A model generated the notes under the pieces. That model was not told where the DNA came from. It searched no databases and saw nothing but the letters and a program-made list of their open reading frames with translations. A stretch of DNA of 64,000 nucleotides from Candidatus Heimdallarchaeota archaeon (GTDB lineage: Archaea; Asgardarchaeota; Heimdallarchaeia; Hodarchaeales; Hodarchaeaceae), in NCBI GenBank assembly GCA_020353515.1, contig CP070695.1, positions 2,486,966-2,550,965 of the forward strand, written 5' to 3'. Shown in pieces: positions 35,101 through 50,819 of the stretch (positions within the stretch are counted from its first letter, which is position 1; every line of letters starts with the position of its first letter). Position numbers and translations under genes: made by a program.

Positions 35101-35393
35101 AAGACGCCATAAACACCGAACTCACGATCTGTTGATTTAGGGATGCCCAAATAGATGATCAAACGGTCATAATAGCCATTACGATCGTCATCAACAGGAT
35201 AATCAGTCCAAGAACTATTGTCAGGTAGAAACTCAGTACTGGACTGACTAACTAAAGAGGAAATTTCTGATACATTCCCTGTGGTCTTAGATATACTCCC
35301 TTCCATTTGATAAGGATCACTCAAACTTCTTAAATTCAGCCCTAGTATAAAAAATAGACCAAGTACAACTCCTATCCGTTTAAGACTGGCCAT
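32121..35393 (-). CDS. Cell-surface glycoprotein with 8 tandem ~120 aa DxDxDG-containing repeats and a C-terminal TM anchor
   Basis: Signal peptide; repeats of the form TGNxWDxGxDxDxDGKFD...EVNIT...YxTRxYxYxEFDxP; S/T linker, TM, RPRRS. Confidence 0.9.
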   Translation of the reverse strand: MASLKRIGVVLGLFFILGLNLRSLSDPYQMEGSISKTTGNVSEISSLVSQSSTEFLPDNSSWTDYPVDDDRNGYYDRLIIYLGIPKSTDREFGVYGVLNDSEGNLLGISILYRWDIGNEILLSFSGQAINQIGTNGSYYVWVGTFRHYWWYGIEDLQMLFSYKTSQDYDASAFEVPNAKITGISDYGNDTDNDGVFDDIIFEFTVEIKDPGYCNLAMNLDSSTPFADGQVINWGEFLTPEDTSIVIRLDIPEDHVDGPLNVSVRFQFYGIDMQFLIGLQTINSYSVEIHVTSRKFLTGNYWDWGVDTDFDGKFDQLVIKTEVNITLTGNYWLNMHLIASNNDRVGWSNWANHGAYWNEGFHNVSLIFDASLVYSLRNNSISFEVEYVRIRNEDNGLMEEASYAYTTRAYNYTEFDIPRAFATGNFWDSGLDSDSDGKFDQIQIGLEVNITSTGSYTLYMRLFLPDLDQGYWDQYTEYSDYWIRGIHNITLSFDTMLVHSYRTNSTFAIDHLRIRDENYNTLDEVFLPYTTRIYNYTEFDLPDAWFTGNLWTRGIDYESNSKFEVLAFDIEINVSSSGNYRIEIRLEQVEGGFDFWDNQYLFLNEGLHWISFEIDGSIIYRFRVNSSFMLTDSRIIREEYYYWNVVDEGYLNYISRAFSYTEFNPPPAFLTGNYWDRGIDTDEDGKFDEIIIDVEVNITQEDSYRIEISVVPYIPVWDSNFWGASETDVYDWGIYNISVQLYTTLPYSLRLDTAFIIDHISVLNTWGEVDHVNRPYITRQYKFSEFDRPGVILTGNFWDSGADTDSNGNYDSLTFELETNVTRSGQYHIEFYIRSRHWEYSEWQSFDVFFQVGIENISLSIDTIFLYPLFDSTYFIIENVRIYNWFYNLLDRSVTSYITKTYNRNLFDTPPILLTNTFIDRGESTDSDGEFEELRFYIGINVTETDTYRIDVEIELTMWDDYNWNSHYMYTSIIEYLEEGVDISIIVPIDTTSFYFSDQYNFLRARIQSINIYDSADNLCFSDSGWIYESREYYFNDFEWWQSWIDSETSTTRESSDFNLDHLPSWNVPFGIVILFAISIVFYLVQRPRRS

Positions 35394-35641
35394 TTATTTA
35401 TCACTCAGAATATATTCCAATTTGGTCTATTTTAACATACCCAATATCGGTGGAATTCAATGGATTCTTCTCTAGTTAATAAATTCTACCCCCTTAAAAT
35501 CTTCTTTCAAAGCTTTTTCGAAAATCTAATTTCTTGATAGAAATATAAGCACGACTTATCTGCGAAGGACAAGGAATATCTTCTTCCCATCTGATTAACT
35601 GACATTTTATCAAAATAAAAACAGACTGACGTTGAGCTGAT

Positions 35642-36700
35642 ATGAATTTTACTCGTACTAACTATGATAAATCCGATATGGTGTTATTTGGGGGAATAGT
35701 CTTCTCAGCTATATTTACTCTAGTGATATGGATATCAGGTTTTGCATTAGATCGGTTTATTCTCGAACCAGATCAAGGTCCAGCTTGGTATTATTGGCAG
35801 TTACCCAATCCAGTTCTTATAAACCAGTTAATTCTTTGGGTATTGTATTTAGCTCATCAATTGACCGTTTGGGGACTTATTTATTATGGGTATCAACAAT
35901 ATAAGACAACAGGTAAGAAACCTACTACAAATCTAACTACTTATAACATTTTAATAATCATCGCTAACGTTTTTTTCATTTTTTTACACCTTATCGAAAC
36001 TCAATTGTTCTATGATGGATTAGCTCAAGATGTGCCCATTTGGACTAGTCAAGGATCAGTTATCATTATGCTCGCAGTAATGCTAATACTTGAAAACAAA
36101 CGAAGAGGATATGTGTTTGGAAAGCAAGTTGGGAAACCAATTACTAAAGAAGTTGTTGAGTTCTTCCGATTTGGACACATGTACATTTTCGCTTGGGCAC
36201 TTGTTTATACATTTTGGTTCCATCCCATGGATAATGATCCTCAGTTATTAACAGGCTTCTTCTATATGTTTTTACTCTTCACGCAATTATCTGTAGCATT
36301 TACAAAAAGTCATTTGAATCGAAAGTGGACTGCATTATTAGAAGGATTTGTAGCATTTCATGCAGTTGTAGTAGCTATCAATAACACCTTAAGTTTTGGT
36401 AGCAGCGATATGTGGCCAATGTTTTTGAGTGGCTTTCTCTTTATGGTGGTCGCGACTTATATTTATGGGATTAGGCTAAAGAAAAGAACCATCTTAACCA
36501 TCTCATTTGTCTATATAATTTTCCTAATTTGGATTTATATCCCTGTCCCCTTAGGTTATGGACGTGATATTACTTATCTCTTTCGATTAGAAGCATTGTG
36601 GATTCCAATTATTCTCTATTTACTTGGATTGCTCTTTGCAACGATTATTTTTACCATTCAAAAAGTGAAAAAGGGAAGAAAAATCGAAAGTGTGTCGTAA
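35642..36700 (+). CDS. Conserved-looking ~10-TM membrane protein, unknown function
   Basis: Polytopic, with WYYWQL, AHQ, LHL.ETQLFYDGLAQDVP, WFHP motifs. Confidence 0.75.
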   Translation: MNFTRTNYDKSDMVLFGGIVFSAIFTLVIWISGFALDRFILEPDQGPAWYYWQLPNPVLINQLILWVLYLAHQLTVWGLIYYGYQQYKTTGKKPTTNLTTYNILIIIANVFFIFLHLIETQLFYDGLAQDVPIWTSQGSVIIMLAVMLILENKRRGYVFGKQVGKPITKEVVEFFRFGHMYIFAWALVYTFWFHPMDNDPQLLTGFFYMFLLFTQLSVAFTKSHLNRKWTALLEGFVAFHAVVVAINNTLSFGSSDMWPMFLSGFLFMVVATYIYGIRLKKRTILTISFVYIIFLIWIYIPVPLGYGRDITYLFRLEALWIPIILYLLGLLFATIIFTIQKVKKGRKIESVS

Positions 36701-36732: not shown

Positions 36733-37443
36733 TTAATTAGTGGTTAAATCGATCAAACATTTCCGTCTTTCCGTAAGGATACCTTCAAGAATTTCTCGAG
36801 TGATCTTTTTCGATGTTTTTACATTATTAGGCATATTATAATAGCGATCTAGATCAAGAGGAGGACCAAAATAAATTCTTACAGGAGTTTGGAAGTTTAA
36901 GCGGAAAAATTTTCCTACAGGAATGATGTTATTCGTTCCATACACGAAGACAGGCACAACTTTCGTTTGAGGGCCTGCTAATTTAGCAATCCAGCCAGCA
37001 CCAACTTTGATTTTATTAATTTGAAATCTTCCTGTTCTTGACCTCCCACCTTCTGGATAAATTCCAACTGATTCACCATTCTTTAACAAATTGAGGGAGA
37101 TACGAATGAATTTTTCTCGTTCTGCTGGCCCTCGTCCGACAGGAAAAGCCAATTCATACTTCGTCCAACGAAACATGATTTTTTTCATGAAATCCGCTGC
37201 TCCTGTAAAACGAATAGCACGTTTAACAGGAAACGCCGCCACAGCTGTAAAAACAGAGTCAACATGACTCAAATGATTGGAAGTGAGCAATGTGGGTACT
37301 CCTTCAATGGGTAAGTTTTCTTTACCATACACCTTAAACGGAATCGCCCAAAAAAGTAATCTAGCTAAATTCAATAGGAAATAGTGGATAAATCGTCTCC
37401 GAAATCCAAGTTTCTTTCGTATATTATAGGGCTCCACTATCAA
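36733..37443 (-). CDS. Lysophospholipid acyltransferase (PlsC/LPLAT family)
   Basis: Catalytic NHLSHVD (HX4D), YPEGGRS, VVPV. Confidence 0.9.
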   Translation of the reverse strand: MIVEPYNIRKKLGFRRRFIHYFLLNLARLLFWAIPFKVYGKENLPIEGVPTLLTSNHLSHVDSVFTAVAAFPVKRAIRFTGAADFMKKIMFRWTKYELAFPVGRGPAEREKFIRISLNLLKNGESVGIYPEGGRSRTGRFQINKIKVGAGWIAKLAGPQTKVVPVFVYGTNNIIPVGKFFRLNFQTPVRIYFGPPLDLDRYYNMPNNVKTSKKITREILEGILTERRKCLIDLTTN

Positions 37444-37584
37444 ATCCTCAAGACCTGTATTAATTTCAACTGTTTTATTTCTTTTATTCGATAATTGATT
37501 TCTTCACATTTTTTGGCCAAGATTTATACCAATGAAAGTCATTATTCAATTCTAAACCTCATATCCCTAGATTTATCATTAGCT

Positions 37585-38958
37585 TTAGATGGTTTTAAAC
37601 ATCGTTTTCGCTTTTTCACGCATGATCTTATGGTCTACAATTGGATATGGATAATCCTCTAAGTCTTTTGGATGTTTTTGATAGAGATTGTGGATTATTT
37701 TAGGATCGTAACCTCGTAATTCAGGAATGTATTGCTTTATATAGTCACATTGTGGATCAAACTTTTTTTGTTGTAACCAAGGGTTAAAAATTCTAAAATA
37801 GGGCACTGGATCACAACCTGTACTCGCTGCCCACTGCCAATTGCCATTATTTACTGAAATATCATAATCCACTAATTTTTCTTTGAAATATTTTTCTCCC
37901 AACTGCCAATTAATTAATAGATCTTTTGTAAGGAAGGATGCGACAATCATCCTTACTCGGTTATGCATCCAACCAGTGGCATTTAGTTGCCTCATTCCTG
38001 CATCAACAATAGGAAATCCAGTTTTCCCTTCACACCAGGCTTGAAATAGTCCCTTATCATTAGTCCAGTCAAGTTTGTCATATTTTGGTCGAAAAGATCC
38101 ATTAAACACATGAGGAAAATGAAATCCAATGTAGATGTAGAAATCTCGCCAATAAAGCTGCCTTAAAAGGGCATAATTGCCAGATTGTTTAATAGCATGA
38201 TAGACTTCACGAATAGATACTGTTCCAAATTTAAGATGAGCTGATAGATGTGTGGTTCCCGTGATTGCAGGAAAATCCCGTTGTTCCTGGTAATTTTTAT
38301 GATTTTGAATCTGATCAAGAAGTTCCAATCCTTTTGTTCTTCCTCCTTTAACCCAGATGTTTGGATTGTAATAATTTAGAATTTCCCTTAATTGATCCAT
38401 TGAAATTGTATCGAATAACTCGTCGTTATAATAGGTATTTTTTGGTGCTTTTACAGGTTCATTGACTAAAAAGATCTGAGATTTTTTAAAAAAGGGAGTA
38501 AATATACTGTATGGAGTTCTATCACCTTTTTTAACAACTTCGGGTTCATTCAGTAATAAATCTGCGGTTATGATAAGCTTTGTGCCAGTATTACTGCAAA
38601 TTCTCCGAATTTTTGTGTCTCGCCTGTGTGAATATGGGGTATAATCACGATTCATTATCAATCTATCAATACCTAGTGCTTCTCTATTTAATAAATCCTT
38701 GATTATGATCTCTGGTTTATCGTGGTAGATAAATAATCTAGAATTATTCATGTTGAATTTATGAAGAAGATCAAGCACTGAATCCTTCAAAAACTGTTTA
38801 GCGTTAAAACTAAGGTTTTTATTCTTGATTAGATATTTATCTAAAATAAAAATAGGAATAACTTTCTCAGATGAATTAAGTGCATGTATTAGTCCAGAAT
38901 TATCTTCGAGCCTTAGATCTCGTCTAAATACAAATAAAGAGATCCCATTTCTTTTCAT
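37585..38958 (-). CDS. phrB: Deoxyribodipyrimidine (CPD) photolyase
   Basis: FRRDLRLEDN, TTHLSAHLKFG, RQLYWRDF, GKTGFPIVDAGMRQL..TGWMHNRVRM, NNGNWQW, FRIFNP. Confidence 0.95.
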   Translation of the reverse strand: MKRNGISLFVFRRDLRLEDNSGLIHALNSSEKVIPIFILDKYLIKNKNLSFNAKQFLKDSVLDLLHKFNMNNSRLFIYHDKPEIIIKDLLNREALGIDRLIMNRDYTPYSHRRDTKIRRICSNTGTKLIITADLLLNEPEVVKKGDRTPYSIFTPFFKKSQIFLVNEPVKAPKNTYYNDELFDTISMDQLREILNYYNPNIWVKGGRTKGLELLDQIQNHKNYQEQRDFPAITGTTHLSAHLKFGTVSIREVYHAIKQSGNYALLRQLYWRDFYIYIGFHFPHVFNGSFRPKYDKLDWTNDKGLFQAWCEGKTGFPIVDAGMRQLNATGWMHNRVRMIVASFLTKDLLINWQLGEKYFKEKLVDYDISVNNGNWQWAASTGCDPVPYFRIFNPWLQQKKFDPQCDYIKQYIPELRGYDPKIIHNLYQKHPKDLEDYPYPIVDHKIMREKAKTMFKTI

Positions 38959-38964
38959 CTTAAA

Positions 38965-39864
38965 TCACTCATTATCTAGTAACACTCTTATCGCTTTTAG
39001 AGCACTTTGTTCCTTGTCTCGAATTTCTAACATGATATCGAAATTCATTGCTTTGGTACTTTGAATAAATGCCCGAAATCTATTAAGATCAATTGAATTA
39101 GCATGCCTCCCTAGTTTTGCATTGGGTTGATTTGAACTCCAATCTAACATCAAAATTCCGTCTTTTGTTTCTGTCCATGTCTCCTGTGCTAGTTGGAGAG
39201 CTTGGACAACAGTTTCGTTGTTGTTTTTAATTGAATGATGAAACACATCAAAGACAACAGGAATATCAATTTCTTTATGGATAGTCAGACAATTCTGCAG
39301 ATCAAATAATCGATCATCATTCTCAATAACTAATCTCTTTTGAATATTGTCTGGTAATCTCAAATAATTTTTAACAAATCTCTCCATGGCTGCAGTTTTA
39401 TCCCCATATACCCCACCTACATGTAATTGAACCTTTGCTGTTGTATCAAGACCCATTCTGTCAAGAACTAGTGTATCATAGAGTAACTCTTGTATGGATT
39501 TGTTAACAACTTCTTCTTTGGGTGAATTAATGATTGTGTACTGCCCAGGATGCATAGAAATCCTAAGATCATGTTTTCTAATATAGGCCCCAATATTTTG
39601 GAGCTCGTGCTGAAAAAAGTCCAAAATCTCCTCAAGTGGTAGTGAAACTGGATGAGATGCAAATGGTATGAAATCAGCAATCCTATAGAAGAGTAAATGA
39701 TTTTCTTGATTGAATTGAAGAGTCTTTTTAATACATGTCAAATTCGATTTCACTGTTGAAAGAAGTTTTTCTCTATTGTAGGATGATAAGCGAATGTTTT
39801 TGTCTGGTTTACATCCTGTGGATGAAAAAGCATTTCCTACATAACCTAATTTCAAAATATTCAC
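38965..39864 (-). CDS. uvsE: UV damage endonuclease UvsE/UVDE
   Basis: PFASHP, RISMHPGQY, LHVGGVYGDK, LVIENDD, VFDVFHH, MLEI.DKE; ends 6 bp before the photolyase start. Confidence 0.95.
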   Translation of the reverse strand: MNILKLGYVGNAFSSTGCKPDKNIRLSSYNREKLLSTVKSNLTCIKKTLQFNQENHLLFYRIADFIPFASHPVSLPLEEILDFFQHELQNIGAYIRKHDLRISMHPGQYTIINSPKEEVVNKSIQELLYDTLVLDRMGLDTTAKVQLHVGGVYGDKTAAMERFVKNYLRLPDNIQKRLVIENDDRLFDLQNCLTIHKEIDIPVVFDVFHHSIKNNNETVVQALQLAQETWTETKDGILMLDWSSNQPNAKLGRHANSIDLNRFRAFIQSTKAMNFDIMLEIRDKEQSALKAIRVLLDNE

Positions 39865-39915
39865 ATCTGGATACAGAACTCTTCTTTCAGGAAAGGAATG
39901 TAATTGAACAAGTGC

Positions 39916-40338
39916 TTACTGTTGAATAATAAGTCCTAGAATCGTTATTACTATGGCTACAACCACACCAATGAAAATTGATTGCAAAGAGATTATTATG
40001 GCTTTATTCCGGTCTTTATTCCGCTCTATTTCATCCTCAATCTTTATTGTCGTTCCAAGATGAACTGAAACATTAGCAACGGAAGAAAATCCATATGCAG
40101 CACAAAATTTTTGCCTCGCTTGAATGAAGCCAATTGCTGCCATGGTTCCAGGGAAAATAAAAAGAAATCCTAGTAGTGGGGTGAGATTCAAAAAGAAAAC
40201 ACTAGATATGTATATTAGAAATCCAATACCTATTATTGCTAAACCAACAAAGCCTATCCTTTTCCGTTGAGTAATTTCTGCACTGCCTATATTACATCTT
40301 CCTGCGACGTATTCAGTATTTGAGGTCAAAGTTCTCAC
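39916..40338 (-). CDS. Small 3-TM membrane protein with two Cys motifs
   Basis: YVAGRCNIG..EI..R and GFIQARQKFCAAYG; lies between heliorhodopsin and uvsE. Confidence 0.75.
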   Translation of the reverse strand: MRTLTSNTEYVAGRCNIGSAEITQRKRIGFVGLAIIGIGFLIYISSVFFLNLTPLLGFLFIFPGTMAAIGFIQARQKFCAAYGFSSVANVSVHLGTTIKIEDEIERNKDRNKAIIISLQSIFIGVVVAIVITILGLIIQQ

Positions 40339-40511
40339 TTGAAAATCATAAACTCACTTTTTTGGAAACCAAGGAATAAGGAGAGAAGTCCTTTGATAAT
40401 CAGAATATTCCAAGTTATCTTCAAATCTTCGCTTTAACAAGGGAATTCCAGATACTCTATTTTTAGAATCAGTCTTTCATAAAAAAGAAAAAAAGAGAAT
40501 ATGTCTAAATT

Positions 40512-41339
40512 CTAGACAAAAATTAATCCAGCGAACACAAGCCAAGCAAGAGCTGATTTGGCTACCAAACTTAATATCTGGTAACCTCGTTCTCCAAAAA
40601 GATAGTCTTTCCATGGACCGATTTTCTTGTACTGAAGAAACATGTTAATCGCAAAACTGTTAAAGAAAAGGAAGTACATAACTACTGCGATATAGACAAA
40701 AGTTGGAATAGCATCGCCAACACCGGTATCAAAACTTAGAAATGTGTCAACTATGACAATCCAAGGAACAATGCCAGCAATCCATCCTAACCAATAGGGT
40801 AACCAGCTAGTTTTTTCAGTGTATTGGTTAATTCTTTCCATAAATAAACCAAACATGTTCATTAAGAAATTTAGAACAAAAATCAAAGCTATGATCCAAA
40901 AATCAAGTATTCCAAACGCTAAAGAAATAAAAATGATCATTACCGAAGAACTGAAAGAATACTCCCACCAACGTATTGGATTCATCTTTTTCTTTAGATT
41001 ATCCACATATGAATTGTTTAAAGGGAAGGCGATAAGGAAATGCGCAAGAGCAGACATAAGCAAAAAACTTGCTAATAAAATACCCGCTACGTTCTCAAAT
41101 GTGAAAAATACGCTTGGATCAGGAGCAAAAATCGGCTTTGTTCCAGTTAATTGTTTTATTACCAATCTAGATTTGTAAATGTCTACAGAAAAGTTTTTTA
41201 TCTCGTCTATAAACAAACTAAGTGTAAATATCAATACACTTTGAACTAGATGCAAAATAGCCATAGCAATGTTGAATTTTTTCAGATGACTCATACTTAT
41301 AGGTGAAGTTTCACCATCTACGAATGAAAATTCTGTCAT
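40512..41339 (-). CDS. heR: Heliorhodopsin
   Basis: 7 TM; LHLVQ (TM1 His), SALAH (TM2 His), NPIRWWEYSFSSSVM (Glu counterion), YQILSLVAKSALAW (retinal Lys in SxxxK); GGTGAGGT SD. Confidence 0.97.
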   Translation of the reverse strand: MTEFSFVDGETSPISMSHLKKFNIAMAILHLVQSVLIFTLSLFIDEIKNFSVDIYKSRLVIKQLTGTKPIFAPDPSVFFTFENVAGILLASFLLMSALAHFLIAFPLNNSYVDNLKKKMNPIRWWEYSFSSSVMIIFISLAFGILDFWIIALIFVLNFLMNMFGLFMERINQYTEKTSWLPYWLGWIAGIVPWIVIVDTFLSFDTGVGDAIPTFVYIAVVMYFLFFNSFAINMFLQYKKIGPWKDYLFGERGYQILSLVAKSALAWLVFAGLIFV

Positions 41340-41352
41340 ATTTCTACCTCAC

Positions 41353-41372
41353 CTTAAATCGACAGATTTAAG
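41353..41372. promoter_or_regulatory. Inverted repeat upstream of heliorhodopsin (operator or leader hairpin candidate)
   Basis: CTTAAATC-gaca-GATTTAAG, between a TATA-like TTTTTAATAT (minus strand, 41397-41406) and the SD. Confidence 0.55.
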
Positions 41373-41536
41373 ATATTCATAGCGCTAATCAAGCAGATAT
41401 TAAAAATTTACTCAAATTTTTTCGAAACACTTGATTTTAGCTTGAAACAAGAATTTAATAGATTTTCAAGAAATTTGAAACATACCAGAGATCAAAGGAA
41501 ATCGATTTCTCACGCTAATAAAAAATCTTCATTCCT

Positions 41537-42862
41537 TTAAGTACGCTGGTTAAACCCACACCGAGTACAGACTGTTAAACCCTCTCGAATCTGAAATCCA
41601 CATTGAATACATGGGTTCTCTTTAAGTAAAGACCGTGTTTTTAAAAATAAAATTCCTGCAATTAAAAAACCAATGATAAGAATAAATGCACCCAAATAAT
41701 AAGGATATGCTGCATCTAGCTCGAAAAGAGCTGTTCCTACTAAAGGACCTCCTATTCTCATAAAAGATCCAATTCCTTGGTTTAAACCTAAAATTACTCC
41801 TGAATTTTCTTTGGGAGTTTCTTTAGATAAAAATGCTCCTATGGTAGGATTAGAAATTGAAGATCCAAACGCAAGCGGAATGACCCAGAGGCTCATCTCG
41901 AAGAGAGAAGTGACAGTACTCAAGCCTATGAAGCCAATAATTAAGAAAAATATTCCTGCAGTAATGAGAGTTGTATCAGAGAAGCGATTTGATAAGGGGA
42001 TAATCAGGCCTGCCTGAGTAATTATGACAACTAATCCCACTACAAAAAATACAAGACCTGCAAGAGATTCATTTAAACCAAAGCGGACTTTTCCCAGTAA
42101 GGCCAAAGTCGCTTGCATTTTTGAAAACGCTAATGAAACACCAGCAAATAAAATTATCGTTAATAAGACGTTAGGGTTTTGCAAAAGAGTTTCACGTAAG
42201 CTGACTTTTACGCTAGCTCCTTGAGAGATTATTTCTTTTCTTCTTCCCCGCATTTCCTCAGTTAATGACTCAGGTAAGTATTTAATTGCTGCAAGGAAGT
42301 TAACTATGGCAATGACAGTCGCAAATACAGCTGGAAGTGCGTACCCGCCAATAAAAGACAGAACTCCACCGATTCCAGGTCCTAATGCGAATCCAAGTCC
42401 AAATGCTGCACCTAATAATCCAAAACCTTTTGCACGATCTTGCCCAGAAGTTGTATCAGCAATATAGGCTTGACTAGTAGGTAAGGTCGCTGCAGTAAAC
42501 GCTCCTCCAACTAAGCGAGACATAAGAATTATGGTTAATGAATCAATGAAGATTAATGCTGCTAAACTCAGCATACCTAATCCGAGTACTGTCCCAAATA
42601 ATCCTGCTAGAATGACAGGCCGACGCCCCCATCGATCTGAGATCCACCCCCAGACAGGGGCAAAAGTAAAACTCATTAATGAATAAACACTAGCCAGAAT
42701 GCCATATATAAATGGTGTTGCTCCCAATTCTAACGTCCAAAACGGAAGTAGCGGGATTATAATTCCAAATTCTAGTAAATCGATGAATACTGCTAGGAAT
42801 AAAACACCTATTGGACCAATAGATAGGTGTGAAGGAGGAATTTTGTTCTCTGTAATTTCCAT
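41537..42862 (-). CDS. MFS efflux transporter (TetA/DHA1-like) with C-terminal Zn ribbon
   Basis: Motif A GWISDRWGRRP, motif C GFALGPGIGG, C-terminal CIQC-x10-CTRC. Confidence 0.9.
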   Translation of the reverse strand: MEITENKIPPSHLSIGPIGVLFLAVFIDLLEFGIIIPLLPFWTLELGATPFIYGILASVYSLMSFTFAPVWGWISDRWGRRPVILAGLFGTVLGLGMLSLAALIFIDSLTIILMSRLVGGAFTAATLPTSQAYIADTTSGQDRAKGFGLLGAAFGLGFALGPGIGGVLSFIGGYALPAVFATVIAIVNFLAAIKYLPESLTEEMRGRRKEIISQGASVKVSLRETLLQNPNVLLTIILFAGVSLAFSKMQATLALLGKVRFGLNESLAGLVFFVVGLVVIITQAGLIIPLSNRFSDTTLITAGIFFLIIGFIGLSTVTSLFEMSLWVIPLAFGSSISNPTIGAFLSKETPKENSGVILGLNQGIGSFMRIGGPLVGTALFELDAAYPYYLGAFILIIGFLIAGILFLKTRSLLKENPCIQCGFQIREGLTVCTRCGFNQRT

Positions 42863-43032
42863 AATGTCTTAAACAACCAATATCCGCTTTAAATCACTCA
42901 TGGGCGCATCTTTTGTAAATGATTCAATCAATTGCCAAGATTAACAATATTATTGATGAAGATCTTATACGATCACTGACCTTTTTGAAATTCCTGTTAA
43001 GTAAATCGGCACCAAGACGAAAGGTATTTATT

Positions 43033-43500
43033 TTAATCTTCGATTAACGCATACTTTTCAGGAGAACCCCATATTTCGACTTTATTGAACTTATCCTTCT
43101 TTGATTGGAAATGTATCCATAACTTTGTTTGGTCAAGGAATGGATTAGCATGGAATAACGCCTGATCACCATATCGAAACGCTTCTAACACTAAGGGCAA
43201 TTCTTGACGAAAAATTCTATCACGAAACTTCGATGTGCCAATTCCCTTACTGATTTGACAATAGACATGAAGTGAATATGTTTCTTCAGTTTTCAACCAT
43301 TCTGCCAAGACCTCATCACGCATTATTCGTATTTGCCATCCTTTTAGTTGTTTTTTGTTAAATTCATGAGCAATAGTTAAAAATAAATCTCCTGTTCGAT
43401 CTGAATGTGTTAAAGTATAGCATCGGGGAACTAGGGGGGAATCAACAGTTGTGGGGGATAAAAAAGTCACATGTAGCTTTTTAGGATCTAAACGACTCAT
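43033..43500 (-). CDS. Stay-Green (SGR) family Mg-dechelatase homolog
   Basis: PRCYTLTHSDRTGDLFL, RDEVLAEW, LHVYC, IFRQELPLVLEAFRYGD, E.WG; GGAGG SD. Confidence 0.92.
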   Translation of the reverse strand: MSRLDPKKLHVTFLSPTTVDSPLVPRCYTLTHSDRTGDLFLTIAHEFNKKQLKGWQIRIMRDEVLAEWLKTEETYSLHVYCQISKGIGTSKFRDRIFRQELPLVLEAFRYGDQALFHANPFLDQTKLWIHFQSKKDKFNKVEIWGSPEKYALIED

Positions 43501-43550
43501 ATCTAAACCTCCTTCATTTTACTTAATGGAACGGATAGTTTACGATAATT

Positions 43551-44501
43551 TTAATGCAATTCCTTTTCCTTTGCCATTATCTCCATACCACTGAAGCTTC
43601 CCACTCCATCAAATTCAATTTTCTTCTTTAAATCGATAAATCTTAGATTAATTGTTGATGTTAAACTTTCAAGGACTTTTCCAGTCATTTTTCCGTTAAT
43701 AGGGCTCCTTAATTTAGAGGTTTTTGCTTGAGTAGCGTCAATCTCTATCCTTTGGTTCTTTTTCACTAATTTAAATGAGACCTGATTCTCATTAATAGTC
43801 AAGTCCTTCAATTTTGCTCTATTATAAGTTGAAAAGAGATTTAATCTGTTTTTGTACAAGAATCCCGCCAAATATCCTGTGAATGATCTTCCTAAATATG
43901 GAATTCTAGCAATAGATGCCATAAATGAGACCCGTTCTTCGGAAAAATGATTAGATTGCATCCAAACATATCCACTAGGGAATGATCTTCCCCAATCCTT
44001 TTCTATATATCCTCTCCCGTGATTAAAAGAAATATCATCTCCGTTAATACTTAGATTTCCATAAATCTCGTGATCAAAGCTTAATACAGCGTGAGAACAT
44101 TCCATACGAGGTAAAAAAGCAAAAGGGCCCATGGCTCCTGGGGAAAGGAATTTTATTGGCCAAGGCACTTGATCTATGAAAATAAGTTCCCCCTTAACCA
44201 CTTGACCTTGTACGTTCAGATCTAGTTTTATTTTATCAGTAGAGAAGTAATTATTTGCAATAGTCACTTCAAATTTATCTTTCTTATATTGAAATTTATT
44301 CAGATTAAATTTATTATATTGTAAATCCCCCGATATTCCATTGAAGATTTGAATGAAGGCTTGACTAGGATGAGCGGAGGAAAAACCTGGAATAATTGCT
44401 ATCGCCACTTTTCTATTATAATCAACCAGCTTATAATACCAGCCTTCAAATCGAAACTTACCGATTCCATGGCAAATTTCAGGCTTCCAAATATTTCCCA
44501 A
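43551..44501 (-). CDS. Tocopherol cyclase family protein
   Basis: FEGWYYK, MGPFAFLPRMECSH, GRGYIEKDWGRSFPSGYVWMQSN. Confidence 0.88.
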   Translation of the reverse strand: MGNIWKPEICHGIGKFRFEGWYYKLVDYNRKVAIAIIPGFSSAHPSQAFIQIFNGISGDLQYNKFNLNKFQYKKDKFEVTIANNYFSTDKIKLDLNVQGQVVKGELIFIDQVPWPIKFLSPGAMGPFAFLPRMECSHAVLSFDHEIYGNLSINGDDISFNHGRGYIEKDWGRSFPSGYVWMQSNHFSEERVSFMASIARIPYLGRSFTGYLAGFLYKNRLNLFSTYNRAKLKDLTINENQVSFKLVKKNQRIEIDATQAKTSKLRSPINGKMTGKVLESLTSTINLRFIDLKKKIEFDGVGSFSGMEIMAKEKELH

Positions 44502-44715
44502 AAGTATTACACCAGTACCACAAGAAAATTGGCTTTTAAATTGAATTCATTTATACAACAAGATAAAAAGAAACATTGTAAGTCCCGTCCACCCTTATTC
44601 TTAATCGATTCCTTAAGAAAATCAGAATTTTCTTTTCTAGACATGTATTGGTGTTTAATTAGAAATACCCTTTGTGACTAAATTTGGTATTTGTATTCAA
44701 AGTTAAAACATTATA

Positions 44716-45591
44716 CTATTTGAATGGATTTGGAATTAATATAGGAGTCCTGTTTTTGTATTCCTCGTAATCTTCTTGACCACCCCACTTGTCATCAGCT
44801 CTTTTTTCAAGTAAAGGAACACCACTTACCTTAGTTAAGAGTAATGTCACAAAAACAGGAGAAATCAATGTTAGCCATCTCCAACCTTGAAGTGTTGGAA
44901 GTGCAATTATTGCGATACCAATCCAGAGGAGAATTTCTCCAAAATAATTTGGATGTCGTGAGATTGACCACAATCCAGTAGTAATGAATTTTTCTTTATT
45001 CTCAGGGACAGATCTGAACTTACTTTTCTGATAATCTGCAATAGCTTCAAAACCAAAGCCTATGATCCACACTAAAAGACCTACTAAACCAATAAGACCA
45101 AAATCCGTTCTTTGTTCTACTGTTATCGCTGCTAATGCCGCTGCTAATGTAAAGCTTACCCATAAACCCTGAATAGTCCAAGTTAAAAAAAAACGTGTAC
45201 CGGATTGTTTGATCTCCTTGAAGCGTTTATCTTCCCCCTCTTTTAAAATTCGTCGGAACAAGTATGTCCCAAGACGAAGCGCCCAGATTGAGACCAATAC
45301 CATTAGTAAAATGGAGCGTGTATCAATTTCAGGACTCAAGGCAACTGCTAAGAATATAACAGTTATGTAGGTTAATGAACCAGTTAGATCAAAGAACTTC
45401 TCAGTCCTTTTGATATATGCAGGTATGAATGCAATCCATTGAATTATAAAGGCAAGAGCAACACCGATTGCAAATACTGGTATTCCACCAAGAACAGTCA
45501 CGCCTCCCTGACTTCCAGCGAGAGTAAGACATATAGCAATGAATAAAATTATGATTATAGCAACCAAGGACTGAATATCTTTCTCATTCAT
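44716..45591 (-). CDS. DUF1295 / steroid 5-alpha-reductase-like membrane protein
   Basis: EKFFDLTGS, WALRLG.YLF.RI...GEDKRF, EAIADYQK, GLWSISRHPNYFGE, SGVPLLE. Confidence 0.92.
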   Translation of the reverse strand: MNEKDIQSLVAIIIILFIAICLTLAGSQGGVTVLGGIPVFAIGVALAFIIQWIAFIPAYIKRTEKFFDLTGSLTYITVIFLAVALSPEIDTRSILLMVLVSIWALRLGTYLFRRILKEGEDKRFKEIKQSGTRFFLTWTIQGLWVSFTLAAALAAITVEQRTDFGLIGLVGLLVWIIGFGFEAIADYQKSKFRSVPENKEKFITTGLWSISRHPNYFGEILLWIGIAIIALPTLQGWRWLTLISPVFVTLLLTKVSGVPLLEKRADDKWGGQEDYEEYKNRTPILIPNPFK

Positions 45592-45641
45592 TTTTAATTC
45601 TCCTTTTATACAGTAATTTCCTTCTTCTGGATGTGTGAAAT

Positions 45642-45657
45642 TTGACTAATTAGTCAA
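45642..45657. promoter_or_regulatory. Perfect 16 bp palindrome upstream of the DUF1295 gene
   Basis: TTGACTAATTAGTCAA, 50 bp upstream of the start codon, downstream of a TATA-like TTGATATA on the minus strand. Confidence 0.6.
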
Positions 45658-45722
45658 TATGATTTCTTGAATCCTATATCAACTTTTTTTCCTAGAGATA
45701 TTTATTTTCTTGTTTATTCTCC

Positions 45723-47540
45723 TCATCCAGTGATCGGTACCCAATCTAGACTTTGATGCTCATAATACTGCTTATAGAGTTGGCCATATTTTCCTCCTTG
45801 AGCAAGCAAAGCCTCATGAGTCCCCTCTTCAATAATTTGCCCCTTTTCCATCACAATAATTCGGTCTGCATTCAGAATAGTGGAAAGCCTATGGGCAATA
45901 ATGATTGAGGTCCGATTCTCAAGGAGGACTTCAAGTGCCTCTTGAATGATCGCTTCGGTGTAAGCATCCACCGATGACGTTGCTTCATCTAGAATAAGAA
46001 TTTTTGGATCCGTTAGAAGCGCCCGAGCAAAGCTAATTAATTGTTTTTGACCTACAGAAAGCCCTCCTCCTCTTTCCCCCACTTGTGTTTGAATTCCATC
46101 ATGTAAATATTCGATAAGTTCTTCTGCATGGACAGATCGAATGGCTTTCCATAGATCCTCTTCTGATGCATCTCGTCTACCATACCGAATATTCTCCTCA
46201 ATTGTCCCGGAAAAGAGAAAAACATCTTGTTGCACCATTCCGAGGTTCCGTCTATAAGAATCCAGTTTTAAATCTCTGATATCGATTCCATCAATCTTAA
46301 TGGATCCACCTTGAAATTCATAAAAACGAGCTAGAAGGTTAACTAAGCTGGATTTTCCCGCGCCTGTGTGACCGACTACTGCAAGTTTCTCTCCTTTTGC
46401 TATTTTTAAACTGAACCCTTTAAAGACCCATTCACCATCGTTTCTGTAACTAAAGTCAACATTTTCAAAAACAATCTCCCCCTCCAAGGCATCAACCCCG
46501 CGAAGCACTGGATTCTGCTTAACATTAGGTTTGGAATCTAATATATCTAGAATTCGTTCATATGCCGCCATCCCAGCACTCAGTTGAGGAAAAAAAGTAG
46601 CAAGAATCATGATAGGGCGAAAAAAACGCTGAATATACAATATATACATTAAAATAATTGCAGTGGTTGATACTCCCTGGAGTACAAGCTGACCACCTAG
46701 ATACACTATTGTTACAAGTATTAAGGCGGTAATTGTTTCAAGGATTGCTCTCCAGACATGTGTCACTGCAGTCAATCGATAAGCTGTTCCAAAATACTCT
46801 TTATTTGTCTCATGAAACTGTTCAGAAACTGTAGCTTCTTGCCCATAACTTTTGCAGACTTGTATTCCTTCGATTGATTCAACCATGGCATTGTTGATAT
46901 TCCCTATTGACTTTCGATAAGCTCGACTCACGATTCTAGCAAGCTTCCGCAGAGAAAACATTAACACAAAGAGGAAAGGAACACCCGCTAGAGTAATCAG
47001 AGCTAAGGTTGGATTCAACCAGAAAAGAATTGCGAAGGTCAAGGCACTCACAAGTAAATTACCCATAGTGTCTGCTAAAAGGATCGTAGTGTTTCCAAAG
47101 TCTAAAGCATCATTTGATACTCTTGAATTCAGACTTCCACTCAGATGTTTGTCGTAAAAACTCATATCTTGCTCCTGTAACTTATCAAAGATATCCATAC
47201 GAAGATTTTCTAGAAAATATGGCATGAAATTCCCAATCTCCCTACGACGGAGACTAAACATGACCCAAATTGCAGCGGATAAAATGAGATATACAACACC
47301 AGCACCTAGAACTATTGAAAAATCACGATCTGGTTTTTCGAAAACATCAACGGCAAAACCAACAATGAGTGGAATAATTATATCAGCAACAGTAGAAATT
47401 AGAATGAAAAGAGAAATAAGCGTGACACTCTTCTTGAACGGAACAATTCGGTGAGCATATCGAGTGAATAACTCTCGATCTGAATACTCTCGCTCTCGTT
47501 TTTCACTGAATACTCCGCGATAGAGTCCCATATTAATCAC
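45723..47540 (-). CDS. Heterodimeric ABC exporter subunit (TMD-NBD; consensus Walker B, degenerate signature)
   Basis: GHTGAGKS, LSVGQKQ, LDEATS, IAHRL. Confidence 0.92.
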   Translation of the reverse strand: MINMGLYRGVFSEKREREYSDRELFTRYAHRIVPFKKSVTLISLFILISTVADIIIPLIVGFAVDVFEKPDRDFSIVLGAGVVYLILSAAIWVMFSLRRREIGNFMPYFLENLRMDIFDKLQEQDMSFYDKHLSGSLNSRVSNDALDFGNTTILLADTMGNLLVSALTFAILFWLNPTLALITLAGVPFLFVLMFSLRKLARIVSRAYRKSIGNINNAMVESIEGIQVCKSYGQEATVSEQFHETNKEYFGTAYRLTAVTHVWRAILETITALILVTIVYLGGQLVLQGVSTTAIILMYILYIQRFFRPIMILATFFPQLSAGMAAYERILDILDSKPNVKQNPVLRGVDALEGEIVFENVDFSYRNDGEWVFKGFSLKIAKGEKLAVVGHTGAGKSSLVNLLARFYEFQGGSIKIDGIDIRDLKLDSYRRNLGMVQQDVFLFSGTIEENIRYGRRDASEEDLWKAIRSVHAEELIEYLHDGIQTQVGERGGGLSVGQKQLISFARALLTDPKILILDEATSSVDAYTEAIIQEALEVLLENRTSIIIAHRLSTILNADRIIVMEKGQIIEEGTHEALLAQGGKYGQLYKQYYEHQSLDWVPITG

Positions 47541-47543
47541 ACA

Positions 47544-49316
47544 TTAATTTTTCACTATTAATTCTGGTAAAATAAGATGTTTACCAAAGATCCGTCTGTA
47601 ATCTTCTGAACTCTGTAGTAATTCATTGTGACTCCCCTCAGCGACATTTCTTCCCCGTTTAAGTACAATAATTTTGTCAGAAGTTCGGATTGTATGCAAT
47701 CGATGAGTGATGACTAGAGTTGTTCTATTCCTGATTACATTCTCCATTGCTTGTGTTATCTTTTCCTCTGTCTCGCTATCTACTGCAGATACGGAATCGT
47801 CAAGAATAAGAATTTCAGGGTCAGTCAAGAATGCACGAGCAATAGCAACACGCTGTTTTTCTCCACCAGAGAGACGTGTTCCTCTCTCTCCGACAATGGT
47901 GTTATATTCTTCAGGAAACTCCAAAGCGAATTCTTCAACTTGAGCAAGCTTTGCTGCATCCATAATTGCTTCATGGGTTGCACTCGGTCTACCAAACGCG
48001 ATATTATCACTTATCGTACGCGAAAAAAGATAGATATCTTGCTCTATATACCCAATGTGCCGTCTTAATTGATCAAGAGGATAATTTCGAATATCTATCC
48101 CATCTAATAAGATGGTTCCCTCTTGGGGTTCATAAAGACGTAAAAGCAACTTCACCAGAGTCGTTTTACCGCATCCCGTTGGACCTACAAGAGCTACTCG
48201 TTGATATGGCTCGATTTTGAAAGATAGATTCTTTAAAATCGGAGTATTTTTTGTTCCATCATCTCCATAAGCAAAAGTCACATCTCTAAACTCAATTGTA
48301 CCTTTAAAAGTATCTGGCCAAGTGAGAGCACTTTCTTGTTGTTCTTCCTCTTCCAATGACAAACTTGTATATAATCGTGAACATGCAGCAAAACCACTCA
48401 TCATATCATTAGTAGCCCAAAAGATCATATTAGTAGGATCAATGAGAGTGATTAAGAGTAAATTAGCTGCAATCAATGCCCCTATCGTTAACGTACCCTC
48501 GAATACAAATACACAACTCATAAGAAATGTCACGCCTATTGCTAAATACAGTACTAATAATGGATAAAATCTTGCCTGAACTTTTGTCTCTCCAATCCGA
48601 TTGTCCCGAAAGCCGATTACTGCTATGTGAAATTTTTCCCGTTCCAATTCTTCTGCAGTGAATGATCGTACAATCGCAACACCACTTATGCTGTCCTGTA
48701 ACACTACAGCCACATTTGAGTGGGTAACCATTCGGCCAGCAGCCCATGGAGCAATTTTCTTTCGGTAATCTAATATAAAAATCATGTAGAAAATAATGAA
48801 GGGGGAACAAATCAAGGCGAGTCTGAGATCAAGGGTTACTATCAATAGAAATGCTGCCATTATAACTTGAAAGAACGGATATAGGTAAAAGGCCCCATGA
48901 GAAATCATAGTATTGATAATGCGTAAATCATTAGTTGCTAGAGCTTGGAGATCACCTGTGCGTGCTTTATCATGATACCGTAATGGTTTATATTGAAGGG
49001 TGTCGAAGAATTCTTGCCGCATATTTTGTTCAGTCTTTAACCCTAAATAATGCCCGATCATCATTGTTATATAATCCATAGCATTCCGAGTAACAAAAAC
49101 TGCAAGTGCAACGGCGAGTAACAGTACTAAATTAGCTAAATCACGGGTTACAAGAGTTGTATCTATGATATATCCAATAACAATTGGAATGATGACCCTT
49201 GAGAAGGTAACAATAATAATACCAACAAGAACACCCACCACCAAGGATTTTTGCCTAGCAAGATGGTATAAAAACCACTTCCTATAGCTCGATATCTTTG
49301 TTAAATCCAAACTCAT
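47544..49316 (-). CDS. Heterodimeric ABC exporter subunit (TMD-NBD; degenerate Walker B)
   Basis: GPTGCGKT, LSGGEKQR, LDDSVS; ends 3 bp from its partner. Confidence 0.92.
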   Translation of the reverse strand: MSLDLTKISSYRKWFLYHLARQKSLVVGVLVGIIIVTFSRVIIPIVIGYIIDTTLVTRDLANLVLLLAVALAVFVTRNAMDYITMMIGHYLGLKTEQNMRQEFFDTLQYKPLRYHDKARTGDLQALATNDLRIINTMISHGAFYLYPFFQVIMAAFLLIVTLDLRLALICSPFIIFYMIFILDYRKKIAPWAAGRMVTHSNVAVVLQDSISGVAIVRSFTAEELEREKFHIAVIGFRDNRIGETKVQARFYPLLVLYLAIGVTFLMSCVFVFEGTLTIGALIAANLLLITLIDPTNMIFWATNDMMSGFAACSRLYTSLSLEEEEQQESALTWPDTFKGTIEFRDVTFAYGDDGTKNTPILKNLSFKIEPYQRVALVGPTGCGKTTLVKLLLRLYEPQEGTILLDGIDIRNYPLDQLRRHIGYIEQDIYLFSRTISDNIAFGRPSATHEAIMDAAKLAQVEEFALEFPEEYNTIVGERGTRLSGGEKQRVAIARAFLTDPEILILDDSVSAVDSETEEKITQAMENVIRNRTTLVITHRLHTIRTSDKIIVLKRGRNVAEGSHNELLQSSEDYRRIFGKHLILPELIVKN

Positions 49317-49485: not shown

Positions 49486-49884
49486 TCAATAAGTCGCTAA
49501 ATTCCTCACAAAATTTAAAACCCATGTCAGAAAAATTCCCAACCCAAGAATCCAAATAAGAATAATGACCACGGTTGTTTTCTTCCCTACGGGTACCTCT
49601 GTAAATTCTTCTTCCAATACCTTCTTACGACATTCCTCCATTATTTCTTTCGGAATCAATTTGAGAGCCAAAGATATTCCTAATGGAACTAGGATCAAAT
49701 CATCTATGTAACCTAGAATAGGAATGAAATCGGGTACTAGATCAATTGGACAGAAAGCATACCCAATGACGACTCCCAAAAATAAACGTTTCCACCTAGA
49801 GACGCGTGAGTCTTTATACACAAGATAAAGGGTGTATGTCTCTTTCTTAAGGTTAGACGCCTTAAGTTTTATTTTTGATAGCAA
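49486..49884 (-). CDS. YkvA/DUF1232 membrane protein
   Basis: YAFCPIDLVPDFIPILGYIDDL. Confidence 0.9.
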   Translation of the reverse strand: MLSKIKLKASNLKKETYTLYLVYKDSRVSRWKRLFLGVVIGYAFCPIDLVPDFIPILGYIDDLILVPLGISLALKLIPKEIMEECRKKVLEEEFTEVPVGKKTTVVIILIWILGLGIFLTWVLNFVRNLATY

Positions 49885-49958
49885 GATGATTTCCTTTTAT
49901 TCTAGAGTTCGATATTGTACTCTAGAAGGGAAAGGTTTTATTTGATTCGATCCCGTTT

Positions 49959-50537
49959 CTAGCGAACTGTTAACAAGGGAGCCCTTTTATGAATTTCTAT
50001 GAACTTCAGAATATTAACCCCAAGTAATGAGAAAGCCTCGGCGATATTTACTTCAGTTTTAGCAGAAGTCTCAATGAAATGACATTGAAATCCATCAGCT
50101 TCGGTCAGATTACTAAGATTGTTAGTAAAGGCCCATCCCTGATTACGAGAAATAGGATTATCTGCAATGGCACTCAAATCCATTTTATTTGCGACAACAA
50201 CAATAGGTACACGACCACGTCCATTATTTGTCCATAGCTCGTTAATCCATTTAGGTGTATTATAGAAAGAATCTGGTCGAGTGATATCATACACTAATAA
50301 CCCTCCTACGCAGCCTTTGTAATAAGCTTCCCTGACACCATCAAAGCGGTCTTGACCTGCTAAATCCCAAATTTGATATCGGACTGGAAATCCATTGATG
50401 CTATCATCACGCATTGCGAAATCAGCGCCAACCGTTAGAAAATACTGAGCCTTAAATCCGTTCCCTATATAACGCTCACGAATAGATGTTTTACCGACCC
50501 CACCATCACCAATTAGTGCGATCTTATATACTACCAT
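49959..50537 (-). CDS. Rab-like small GTPase (close paralog of 29599-30261)
   Basis: GDGGVGKT, TVGADF, RYQIWDLAGQDRF, LVYDIT, NKMD, ETSAK. Start moved to MVVYKI (50537, GAGGT SD). Confidence 0.95.
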   Translation of the reverse strand: MVVYKIALIGDGGVGKTSIRERYIGNGFKAQYFLTVGADFAMRDDSINGFPVRYQIWDLAGQDRFDGVREAYYKGCVGGLLVYDITRPDSFYNTPKWINELWTNNGRGRVPIVVVANKMDLSAIADNPISRNQGWAFTNNLSNLTEADGFQCHFIETSAKTEVNIAEAFSLLGVNILKFIEIHKRAPLLTVR

Positions 50538-50819
50538 TCTTAACCTCTCTTCTTCAAGCATCAGATTTTCGTCGGGAAAAAGTAAGATAAGACATGACTT
50601 TTCCCTACAAATGGTTATGAAAACCACACTCTAATAAAGAATTAAGATACTTAAAAGTGACAGTTTCTATTAATAAGTGACTTAATTGATTTTTTGAAGA
50701 TATCTCGTCTGTTCCTCAAGATTATCCTCTAAGGAATGATGGAACCTTATCTATCCTTTCTTCATCATAACGGCTTACCTCGAAATAAAGCTTAATATAA
50801 GGGATATACCTCCTAAAAA

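Follow-up and report, generated by a model that had tools for sequence, protein, structure and literature searches.

A heliorhodopsin-centred gene neighbourhood with a conserved Staygreen partner in a Hodarchaeales archaeon

We analysed a stretch of 64,000 nucleotides (from here on, the window) of the single-contig, 4.94-Mb genome of Candidatus Heimdallarchaeota archaeon (GCA_020353515.1, contig CP070695.1, positions 2,486,966 to 2,550,965), in which eleven consecutive minus-strand genes include one for heliorhodopsin (HeR) and one for a homologue of the Mg-dechelatase Staygreen (SGR). An earlier note on this DNA had read the run, here called the island, as a single photoprotection module of a non-phototrophic, probably Asgard, archaeon. 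All eleven open reading frames (ORFs) lie at the positions claimed and Pfam backs every family name; the palindromes reported ahead of the DUF1295 and HeR genes were also both found in the sequence. The features are listed in order of transcription, with window coordinates.

47544..49316, minus strand: ABC exporter half-transporter 1 (ABC1), with Pfam ABC_membrane and ABC_tran matches and motifs
45723..47540, minus strand: ABC exporter half-transporter 2 (ABC2), by Pfam and motifs
45642..45657, unstranded: palindrome TTGACTAATTAGTCAA (16 nt, perfect), some 50 nt upstream of the DUF1295 gene
44716..45591, minus strand: DUF1295 membrane enzyme, steroid/polyprenol reductase-like (Pfam E 6e-69)
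43551..44501, minus strand: tocopherol-cyclase-like (TC-like) protein, Tocopherol_cycl (Pfam E 2e-13, partial)
43033..43500, minus strand: Staygreen (SGR), Mg-dechelatase homologue (Pfam E 1e-50)
41537..42862, minus strand: MFS transporter of the drug:H+ antiporter type (Pfam MFS_1)
41353..41372, unstranded: inverted repeat CTTAAATC-N4-GATTTAAG, 13 nt upstream of the HeR start
40512..41339, minus strand: heliorhodopsin (HeR; Pfam E 1e-83)
40357..40473, minus strand: pseudogene relic of a DUF1295-like paralogue (tblastn)
39916..40338, minus strand: 2Cys protein, a 140-aa three-helix membrane protein with no assigned family
38965..39864, minus strand: UvdE UV-damage endonuclease (Pfam E 2e-59)
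37585..38958, minus strand: class I-type cyclobutane pyrimidine dimer (CPD) photolyase (Phr), with both Pfam domains
36733..37443, minus strand: PlsC-type acyltransferase (Pfam; HX4D motif HLSHVD at residue 57)

The suspected Asgard origin is sound. The host is a Hodarchaeales-type Asgard archaeon, its congeners are named Hodarchaeota, Hodarchaeales or Heimdallarchaeota, and a Ras-family GTPase adjoins the island. In the sequencing-run listing, host DNA was traced to sediment metagenomes only, and the runs listed did not include RNA.

Both central proteins keep the hallmarks of their families. HeR matched PF18761 with 281 bits (cut-off 26.7) over profile positions 1-241 of 242, its nearest solved structure was TaHeR (PDB 6IS6, E 1e-56), and the retinal Lys261 and the counterion Glu126 of the RWxEY motif were invariant in 18 sequences. 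SGR scored 172 bits against PF12638 (cut-off 27), and its 155 residues align end to end (residues 1-151, E 1e-46) with the 161-aa AbSGR-h of Anaerolineae bacterium SM23_63 (PDB 7Y5Y; PMC8531759, PMC11006732). Residues R26, Y28, T29, H32, D34 and D62, to which roles have been assigned (D34 and D62, catalytic; H32; R26, Y28 and T29, structural; PMC8531759), show no variation in alignment A1, of which the window protein is part. The island SGR is apparently intact, then, with full-length similarity to AbSGR-h and the catalytic and structural residues kept; its host is archaeal whereas that of AbSGR-h is bacterial, its activity is a predicted one, and what is new is its gene context. The Anaerolineae homologue dechelates chlorophylls a, b and c, chlorophyllide and protochlorophyllide (PMC11006732), and the role of AbSGR-h and the physiological relevance of prokaryotic SGR homologues have been stated to be unknown (PMC8531759).

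The genus comparison comprised 21 congeners, with gene context taken only from contigs that were long enough. HeR was found in 14 of them, SGR in 12 and photolyase in 9; HeR and SGR were both present in 11 of the 21 and both missing in 6, and photolyase was found in none of these six (Fisher p=0.009, a test that, here as below, overstates significance because related genomes are not independent). HeR, SGR and photolyase are gained and lost together in this genus. The only congener with SGR but without HeR (G010, locus L045) carries its SGR as a pseudogene with two in-frame stops, TGA and TAA.

The order of the genes varies among these genomes. In G004, G018 and G020 it is DUF1295, PNPOx-like, DUF1295-like, 2Cys, UvdE, Phr, SDR, acyl-CoA ligase, hyp251, PlsC and an SGR-HeR pair, and in G008 and G011 it is PNPOx-like, 2Cys (followed in G011 by UvdE-Phr), SDR, SGR-NmrA-like-hyp240-HeR and TspO-like-DUF1295. 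A DUF1295-PlsC pair adjoins HeR in G001 and G016, G014 has ABC2-DUF1295-SGR-MFS, and G021 has a TC-like-SGR pair. DUF1295 is linked to HeR or SGR in G001, G008, G011, G014, G016 and G020, as well as in Anaerolineae, and PlsC abuts HeR or SGR in G001, G004, G016, G018 and G020. Taken together, HeR, SGR, DUF1295, PlsC and the 2Cys-UvdE-Phr unit lie within 20 kb although the genus arranges them in five or more different orders; this survival of linkage through rearrangement is the strongest sign that the island genes work in one context. The neighbourhood search in Asgard relatives that the earlier note had proposed thus recovers the gene set in shuffled orders, as expected of genes that belong together. 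On this comparison the five elements just named form the core of the island, with ABC1-ABC2, TC-like and MFS as variable additions. Just upstream of HeR in G020 (L062:8436-8818) we observed two short ORF relics, one of 65 aa with 78% identity to ABC2 and one of 57 aa with 60% identity to ABC1, which suggests that the ABC pair was once linked to HeR in that genome too.

The association of SGR with HeR extends beyond the genus. Eighty SGR loci were fetched out of at least 577 in species genomes, the AbSGR-h locus lying outside the 80. HeR was present in the fetched flank of 16, where about 0.4 of 80 would be expected by chance for a single-copy gene, and it was directly adjacent in 12, with gaps of at most 123 nt and mostly in the order HeR then SGR. 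The 16 represent Hodarchaeales, Dehalococcoidales, several lineages of Anaerolineae and one Thermoproteota single cell, in which HeR and SGR are 666 nt apart. In other genomes, HeR and SGR form an operon and are separated by 12-82 nt. An even sample of 251 Anaerolineae genomes had SGR in 13, HeR in 40 and both in 9, so that HeR accompanied SGR in 9/13 genomes as compared to 31/238 genomes without SGR (odds ratio 15, one-sided Fisher p=1.3e-5); the two genes were physically adjacent in six of the nine double carriers. In the SGR tree, HeR-adjacent copies fall in several separate clades, and the Hodarchaeales SGRs cluster with other Asgard SGRs, not inside Chloroflexota. Two proteins of three Anaerolineae loci (L097, L107, L123), DUF1295 (62-63% identity) and NmrA-like (60%), are unusually similar to their Hodarchaeales counterparts for a comparison across domains, and some island genes may have moved between domains.

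Unbiased clustering of the genes within 5 kb of SGR in the 80 loci gave photolyase in 16 loci, HeR in 15, MFS in 14, ABC and CrtI-like oxidase in 13 each, peroxiredoxin in 12, NmrA-like in 9, DUF1295 in 8, alpha/beta hydrolase in 6, MerR/HTH (helix-turn-helix) and B12-binding CarH-type regulators in 6, and phytoene synthase and the hyp255 (TspO-like) family in 5 each. In archaea, Thor-type and Hermod-type ones among them, peroxiredoxin precedes SGR by 20-33 nt, and a convergent photolyase frequently accompanies the pair. The alpha/beta hydrolase lies 15-118 nt downstream of SGR in three of its six loci, MFS-SGR-esterase cassettes occur in Anaerolineae, and a TC-MFS-SGR arrangement is found in the Chloroflexota locus L068. 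The search in other phyla, also proposed in the earlier note, therefore returns SGR with HeR, photolyase, MFS, DUF1295 and TC-like genes again. Across domains, prokaryotic SGR sits, by these counts, among genes for light sensing, repair of light damage, peroxide removal, pigment binding and export.

The presumed pigment-binding member of this list is hyp255 (L137:3660-4439, minus strand; L034:12226-12993; L134:9076-9855), which has no Pfam match. In its structural model, residues 6-174 form a TSPO-like five-helix bundle (ESM Atlas score 0.97), followed by three extra helices. Alignment with VIA-align gave Z scores of 12-13.8 to the Rhodobacter (RsTSPO) and Bacillus (BcTSPO) structures, the next unrelated match being at Z 8; a profile of hyp255 had no match among PDB sequences, and TSPO was recovered by structure comparison only. 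TSPO proteins bind tetrapyrroles, and one of the TSPO structures matched by hyp255 has bound heme. The hyp255 gene adjoins DUF1295 and HeR in congeners and SGR in Chloroflexota.

Within the window, the idea of a single module or operon did not hold, as six intergenic gaps of 131, 214, 170, 197, 173 and 141 nt (preceding DUF1295, TC-like, MFS, HeR, 2Cys and PlsC, respectively) leave room for internal promoters. Because these gaps split the run, the eleven genes are predicted to form about seven transcription units, not one operon. Tight spacings are found between ABC1 and ABC2 (3 nt), TC-like and SGR (50 nt), 2Cys and UvdE (51 nt) and UvdE and Phr (6 nt), and TC-like and SGR are probably co-transcribed. 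Two genes further upstream share the strand, which brings the minus-strand run to at least 13 consecutive genes, and the GC skew is negative over 30-52 kb of the window; for this reason the shared orientation is uninformative, and the above-chance signal is the linkage conserved in other genomes, not co-orientation.

The palindrome TTGACTAATTAGTCAA and the HeR repeat CTTAAATC-N4-GATTTAAG occur once each in the 4.94-Mb genome, and the regulon search found no second copy of either in the window or the genome. The HeR repeat overlaps a TATA-like sequence. The three closest orthologous promoters have retained it, C..G having become T..A as a compensating change. The DUF1295 palindrome is absent from the closest orthologous promoter; in that promoter, of the closest relative G014 (L051:1834-1966), a 37-nt tandem duplication replaces it. 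Scans for sigma-70 promoters and terminators gave counts at or below the shuffled expectation, with models that are ill-suited to archaea. Recent import of the island was also considered, and base composition gives no sign of it (GC 0.33-0.40 throughout).

The present position of HeR bears the trace of a rearrangement. The 173-nt gap between HeR and 2Cys contains the last 40 codons of a DUF1295-like paralogue (tblastn, 68-70% identity, E 1e-14), and in G004 and G020 this paralogue sits immediately ahead of the 2Cys gene. A deletion has therefore brought HeR in front of 2Cys-UvdE-Phr, and the present gene order is young.

Characterised HeRs work by binding photolyase, glutamine synthetase or an ABC exporter (PMC9769723, PMC11109279): TfHeR binds and modulates photolyase (PMC9769723), and OcHeR binds and modulates the heterodimeric ABC exporter OmrDE (PMC11109279). 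Znf-HeR is encoded near photolyase, UvdE and carotenoid genes (PMC8612252), and redox genes are among the published neighbours of HeR as well (PMC8612252, PMC9769723, PMC11109279). The island resembles these neighbourhoods in that a HeR with intact Lys and Glu lies near a CPD photolyase, UvdE and an ABC heterodimer with one degenerate site, so that several published partner classes co-occur in it. It differs from them in containing SGR, DUF1295, PlsC and the TC-like gene, which are absent from the ten published HeR neighbour groups. Unlike TfHeR and OcHeR, the island HeR is not in a tight operon with photolyase, which lies three genes and the relic downstream, or with the ABC pair, which lies four genes upstream, and both are candidate partners here. 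Prediction of a complex between HeR (alignment A2) and SGR (alignment A1) returned a score of 0.00, which weighs neither for nor against binding.

Sequence motifs of the ABC proteins are consistent with an asymmetric heterodimeric exporter. ABC1 has a degenerate Walker B (ILILDDS, with DD for the catalytic DE) and an intact signature (LSGGE), and ABC2 has a canonical DE Walker B and a degenerate signature (LSVGQ). A heterodimer with one degenerate ATP site is predicted from these motifs and from the 3-nt spacing of the two genes, and the pair would belong to the exporter class that HeR modulates in PMC11109279. The MFS protein, a presumed exporter, resembles the Tet(A) family in NCBIfam with a score below the cut-off.

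In the repair unit, photolyase matched PF00875 (1.5e-31) and PF03441 (3.6e-82), and its top solved relatives (S. tokodaii 2E0I, E 1e-103, then 1TEZ, 1OWL and 1DNP) place it, by similarity, in the class I CPD type. Photolyase and UvdE families repair UV lesions by light and dark routes. The 2Cys protein, whose gene is the first of the unit and is kept upstream of UvdE-photolyase in congeners, has two cysteines (in the CNIG and KFCAAYG motifs), both conserved without exception in seven orthologues; it matched no family of Pfam or NCBIfam, and its ESM Atlas neighbours are unannotated.

The TC-like protein matches PF14249 only over profile positions 145-333 of 335, that is, in the C-terminal half (E 2e-13), and its homologues carry the NCBI name 'tocopherol cyclase family'. 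Its AlphaFold2 model (pLDDT 91) gave Foldseek matches with E values from 1e-11 to 1e-8 to the pericyclases Fsa2 and Phm7, to AttH (2ICH) and to kievitone hydratase. The modelled fold is the AttH/CrtC-like double beta-barrel common to AttH, kievitone hydratase, fungal pericyclases and a phosphosteroid lyase, and marks an enzyme for hydrophobic isoprenoid or polyketide substrates; no evidence speaks for tocopherol synthesis. The family name given in the earlier note holds, and nothing shows a tocopherol product, the singlet-oxygen quencher made by the plant and cyanobacterial cyclase. Genes for homogentisate synthesis, phytyl transfer and methylation were not found in the window, a genome-wide search for them not having been made.

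The host is non-phototrophic, as the earlier note had supposed. Profile searches of the genome, with positive controls that matched, found no HemB, HemC, CobN/Mg-chelatase or type II reaction centre. Since HemB, HemC and Mg-chelatase are missing, the host has no means of producing tetrapyrroles, and if SGR acts on a Mg-tetrapyrrole, this must be foreign. Pheophytin and pheophorbide remain photosensitisers. PaO (PF08417) was not found in the single-contig genome, the control matching in two genomes. Compared with the plant PAO/phyllobilin pathway, the island has the first enzyme, SGR, in common and apparently intact; it differs in that PaO is not found in the genome, that the window has no pheophytinase-type esterase, and that exporters take the place of ring-opening enzymes. 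Chlorophyll detoxification of the plant type is ruled out here, there being no macrocycle-opening PaO in the genome. As the dechelated products are phototoxic and a ring-opening enzyme is missing, export would be essential for detoxification.

On these grounds we give a probability of about 0.6 to the view that the locus is an accessory light-stress island of a coastal-sediment Hodarchaeales archaeon. HeR would be the light sensor and, as characterised HeRs do, would bind partner proteins and modulate them, and the 2Cys-UvdE-Phr unit would repair UV lesions. DUF1295 and PlsC, joined in congeners by SDR, acyl-CoA ligase and PNPOx-like proteins, would maintain or remodel membrane lipids under photo-oxidative stress. 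SGR would remove Mg from foreign chlorophyll-type pigments partitioned into the membrane, the TC-like barrel may act on the isoprenoid tail of such pigments, and the MFS protein and the heterodimeric ABC exporter would pump out the products, with no ring opening. Chlorophyll dechelation and export by the island are plausible, and the specific chlorophyll-disposal mechanism is put forward tentatively, at clearly less than even odds; light control, the coupling of HeR to SGR, the identity of the substrate and export are parts of the whole reading that we infer. The Anaerolineae MFS-SGR-esterase cassettes would fit a logic of dechelation, dephytylation and export, the window itself having no esterase.

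Photolyase is a member of the Rhodobacter sphaeroides sigmaE-ChrR regulon. Among the genes that singlet oxygen induces in Chlamydomonas in a SAK1-dependent manner are DUF1295, MDR-type ABC transporters, SDR and acyl-CoA synthetase (PMC4067076, which also cites the sigma-E response). The island and its congeners resemble the SAK1 and sigmaE-ChrR regulons in lipid enzymes, SDR and acyl-CoA ligase types and multidrug-type exporters, DUF1295 being shared with Chlamydomonas. No homologue of sigmaE/ChrR or SAK1 is implied by this likeness, and genes for cyclopropane fatty acid synthase and DUF1365 were not observed; in place of those regulators, the sensor candidates of the island are HeR and a distant CarH-like regulator.

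Several points weigh against this reading. According to a published view cited in PMC8531759, Mg-dechelation by prokaryotic SGR homologues may be promiscuous. No phytol-removing esterase lies within the window, and dechelation without ring opening would detoxify only if the products were exported, a step that we infer. Several congener islands lack the ABC pair, TC-like and MFS, co-regulation is an assumption, given the large gaps and the shuffled orders, and the relatedness of the genomes inflates the Fisher tests.

Some of these points would suit a light-stress island in which SGR acts on another metal complex or lipid-soluble compound and HeR exerts no direct control, the genes being co-inherited accessory light genes. 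The possible promiscuity of bacterial homologues and their physiological role, stated to be unknown (PMC8531759), agree with this, and so does the lack of PaO in the host genome. In Thor-type and Hermod-type archaea SGR follows peroxiredoxin at the 20-33 nt given above with no HeR nearby, and in one closed Thorarchaeota genome HeR and SGR are both present but far apart. We nevertheless consider this alternative unlikely, as SGR has its catalytic residues intact and resembles a dechelatase of proven broad range over the full length, a TspO-like protein with a tetrapyrrole-binding fold, an exporter and an esterase recur beside SGR, and the host has no tetrapyrroles of its own.

A second light-related locus of the same genome, about 0.95 Mb from the window, bears on another explanation. 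This locus (L137; G000:C1:1533001-1546000) encodes on one strand a CrtI-like protein (518 aa), a weak lycopene-cyclase-like protein, a 119-aa ORF, the TspO-like protein, hyp240 and an NmrA-like protein (492 aa), and on the other strand phytoene synthase, a HTH and B12-binding (CarH-like) regulator, a PNPOx-like protein, a 59-codon SGR fragment and a second CrtI-like protein. Genes of L137 are contiguous with HeR-SGR in G008 and G011, and the ancestral island was therefore probably larger and has since been split in the host.

According to this explanation, the island would supply the HeR chromophore or isoprenoid metabolism, with SGR, TC-like, DUF1295, SDRs and NmrA-like proteins processing carotenoid, retinal or phytol-type isoprenoids, for example in phytol salvage from chlorophyll. 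In its favour, the HeR-hyp240-NmrA-like-SGR genes of G008 and G011 are contiguous with genes that lie in the host in the carotenoid cluster of L137, and the fold of the TC-like protein belongs to enzymes acting on isoprenoid double bonds. Moreover, an RPE65-type carotenoid oxygenase was not found in the genome (the positive control matched), which leaves the retinal-forming step without an assigned gene; searches for Blh (PF15461) and type-1 rhodopsin (PF01036) gave no match, with controls that matched nowhere, and are uninformative. We regard the explanation as improbable, because carotenoid genes are standard light-induced photoprotection, whose linkage can thus do without a role in chromophore supply, no isoprenoid chemistry is known of SGR, and photolyase, UvdE and peroxiredoxin as neighbours misfit a biosynthetic pathway.

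The hyp240 protein (L137:2929-3648, minus strand; L034:10343-11065, minus strand) is a multi-pass membrane protein of no family with a histidine motif, SHTLIHW, and its gene separates HeR from the NmrA-like gene in G008 and G011. It is a candidate retinal-forming enzyme because no RPE65-type enzyme was found and the Blh search was uninformative. In the divergent CrtI-like/phytoene synthase promoter (L137:7240-7290), beside the CarH-like gene, three TTAAAC/TTAAC direct repeats are spaced by 10-11 nt, a possible operator. Their half-site is similar to the TTAAAT arms of the HeR repeat, though in a genome that is AT-rich.

A chance origin of co-orientation and adjacency, with no functional relation, could appeal to the minus-strand run and the negative GC skew described above, but it is contradicted by the comparison of genomes, in which the same families stay linked in five or more gene orders of the genus and recur around SGR in other phyla, and is very improbable.

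The earlier note knew of no description of the full combination. This stands for the pairing of HeR with SGR, no paper combining heliorhodopsin with stay-green, staygreen or dechelation having been found in the searchable library, and does not stand for HeR with photolyase, UvdE and ABC exporters, which has been published (PMC9769723, PMC8612252, PMC11109279). Likewise, SGR homologues from bacteria and archaea that are not phototrophic have been published, and so have their activity and a crystal structure (PMC8531759, PMC11006732), and bioRxiv 10.64898/2026.03.19.712979 surveys SGR homologues without gene context. On our reading, the island is a HeR-centred light-defence neighbourhood with SGR as a new conserved partner. 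Two questions, the function of most HeRs and the reason why non-photosynthetic microbes keep an active chlorophyll Mg-dechelatase, thus become testable together, and the conserved pair and the context of SGR (photolyase, peroxiredoxin, CarH-like regulators, carotenoid genes, exporters and the TspO-like protein) point to concrete experiments. The findings also have a bearing on how chlorophyll breakdown arose in plants, a pathway for which a bacterial SGR is thought to have been borrowed, and on the niche of Hodarchaeales, exposed to light and rich in pigment; of the Asgard groups, this is the one that is most frequently put close to the root of eukaryotes.

More speculatively, and at less than even odds, HeR and SGR could be an ancient light-gated pigment-disposal pair common to Chloroflexota, Asgard archaea and further non-phototrophs. 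Once activated by light, HeR would turn the dechelatase on or recruit it at the membrane, foreign chlorophylls, demetallated and, where there is an esterase, dephytylated, would be exported via the linked MFS or ABC transporters, and the TspO-like and lipid-repair proteins would limit singlet-oxygen damage. If this were true, prokaryotic SGR would have been a genuine chlorophyll enzyme before green plants acquired it, and not a promiscuous by-stander.

Around the island, a 1090-aa ORF and a 352-aa ORF without a Pfam family flank it (window 32121-36700). Directly upstream of the ABC pair, on the same strand and outside the conserved set, the window encodes a DUF1232 protein and the Ras-family small GTPase (49486-50627).

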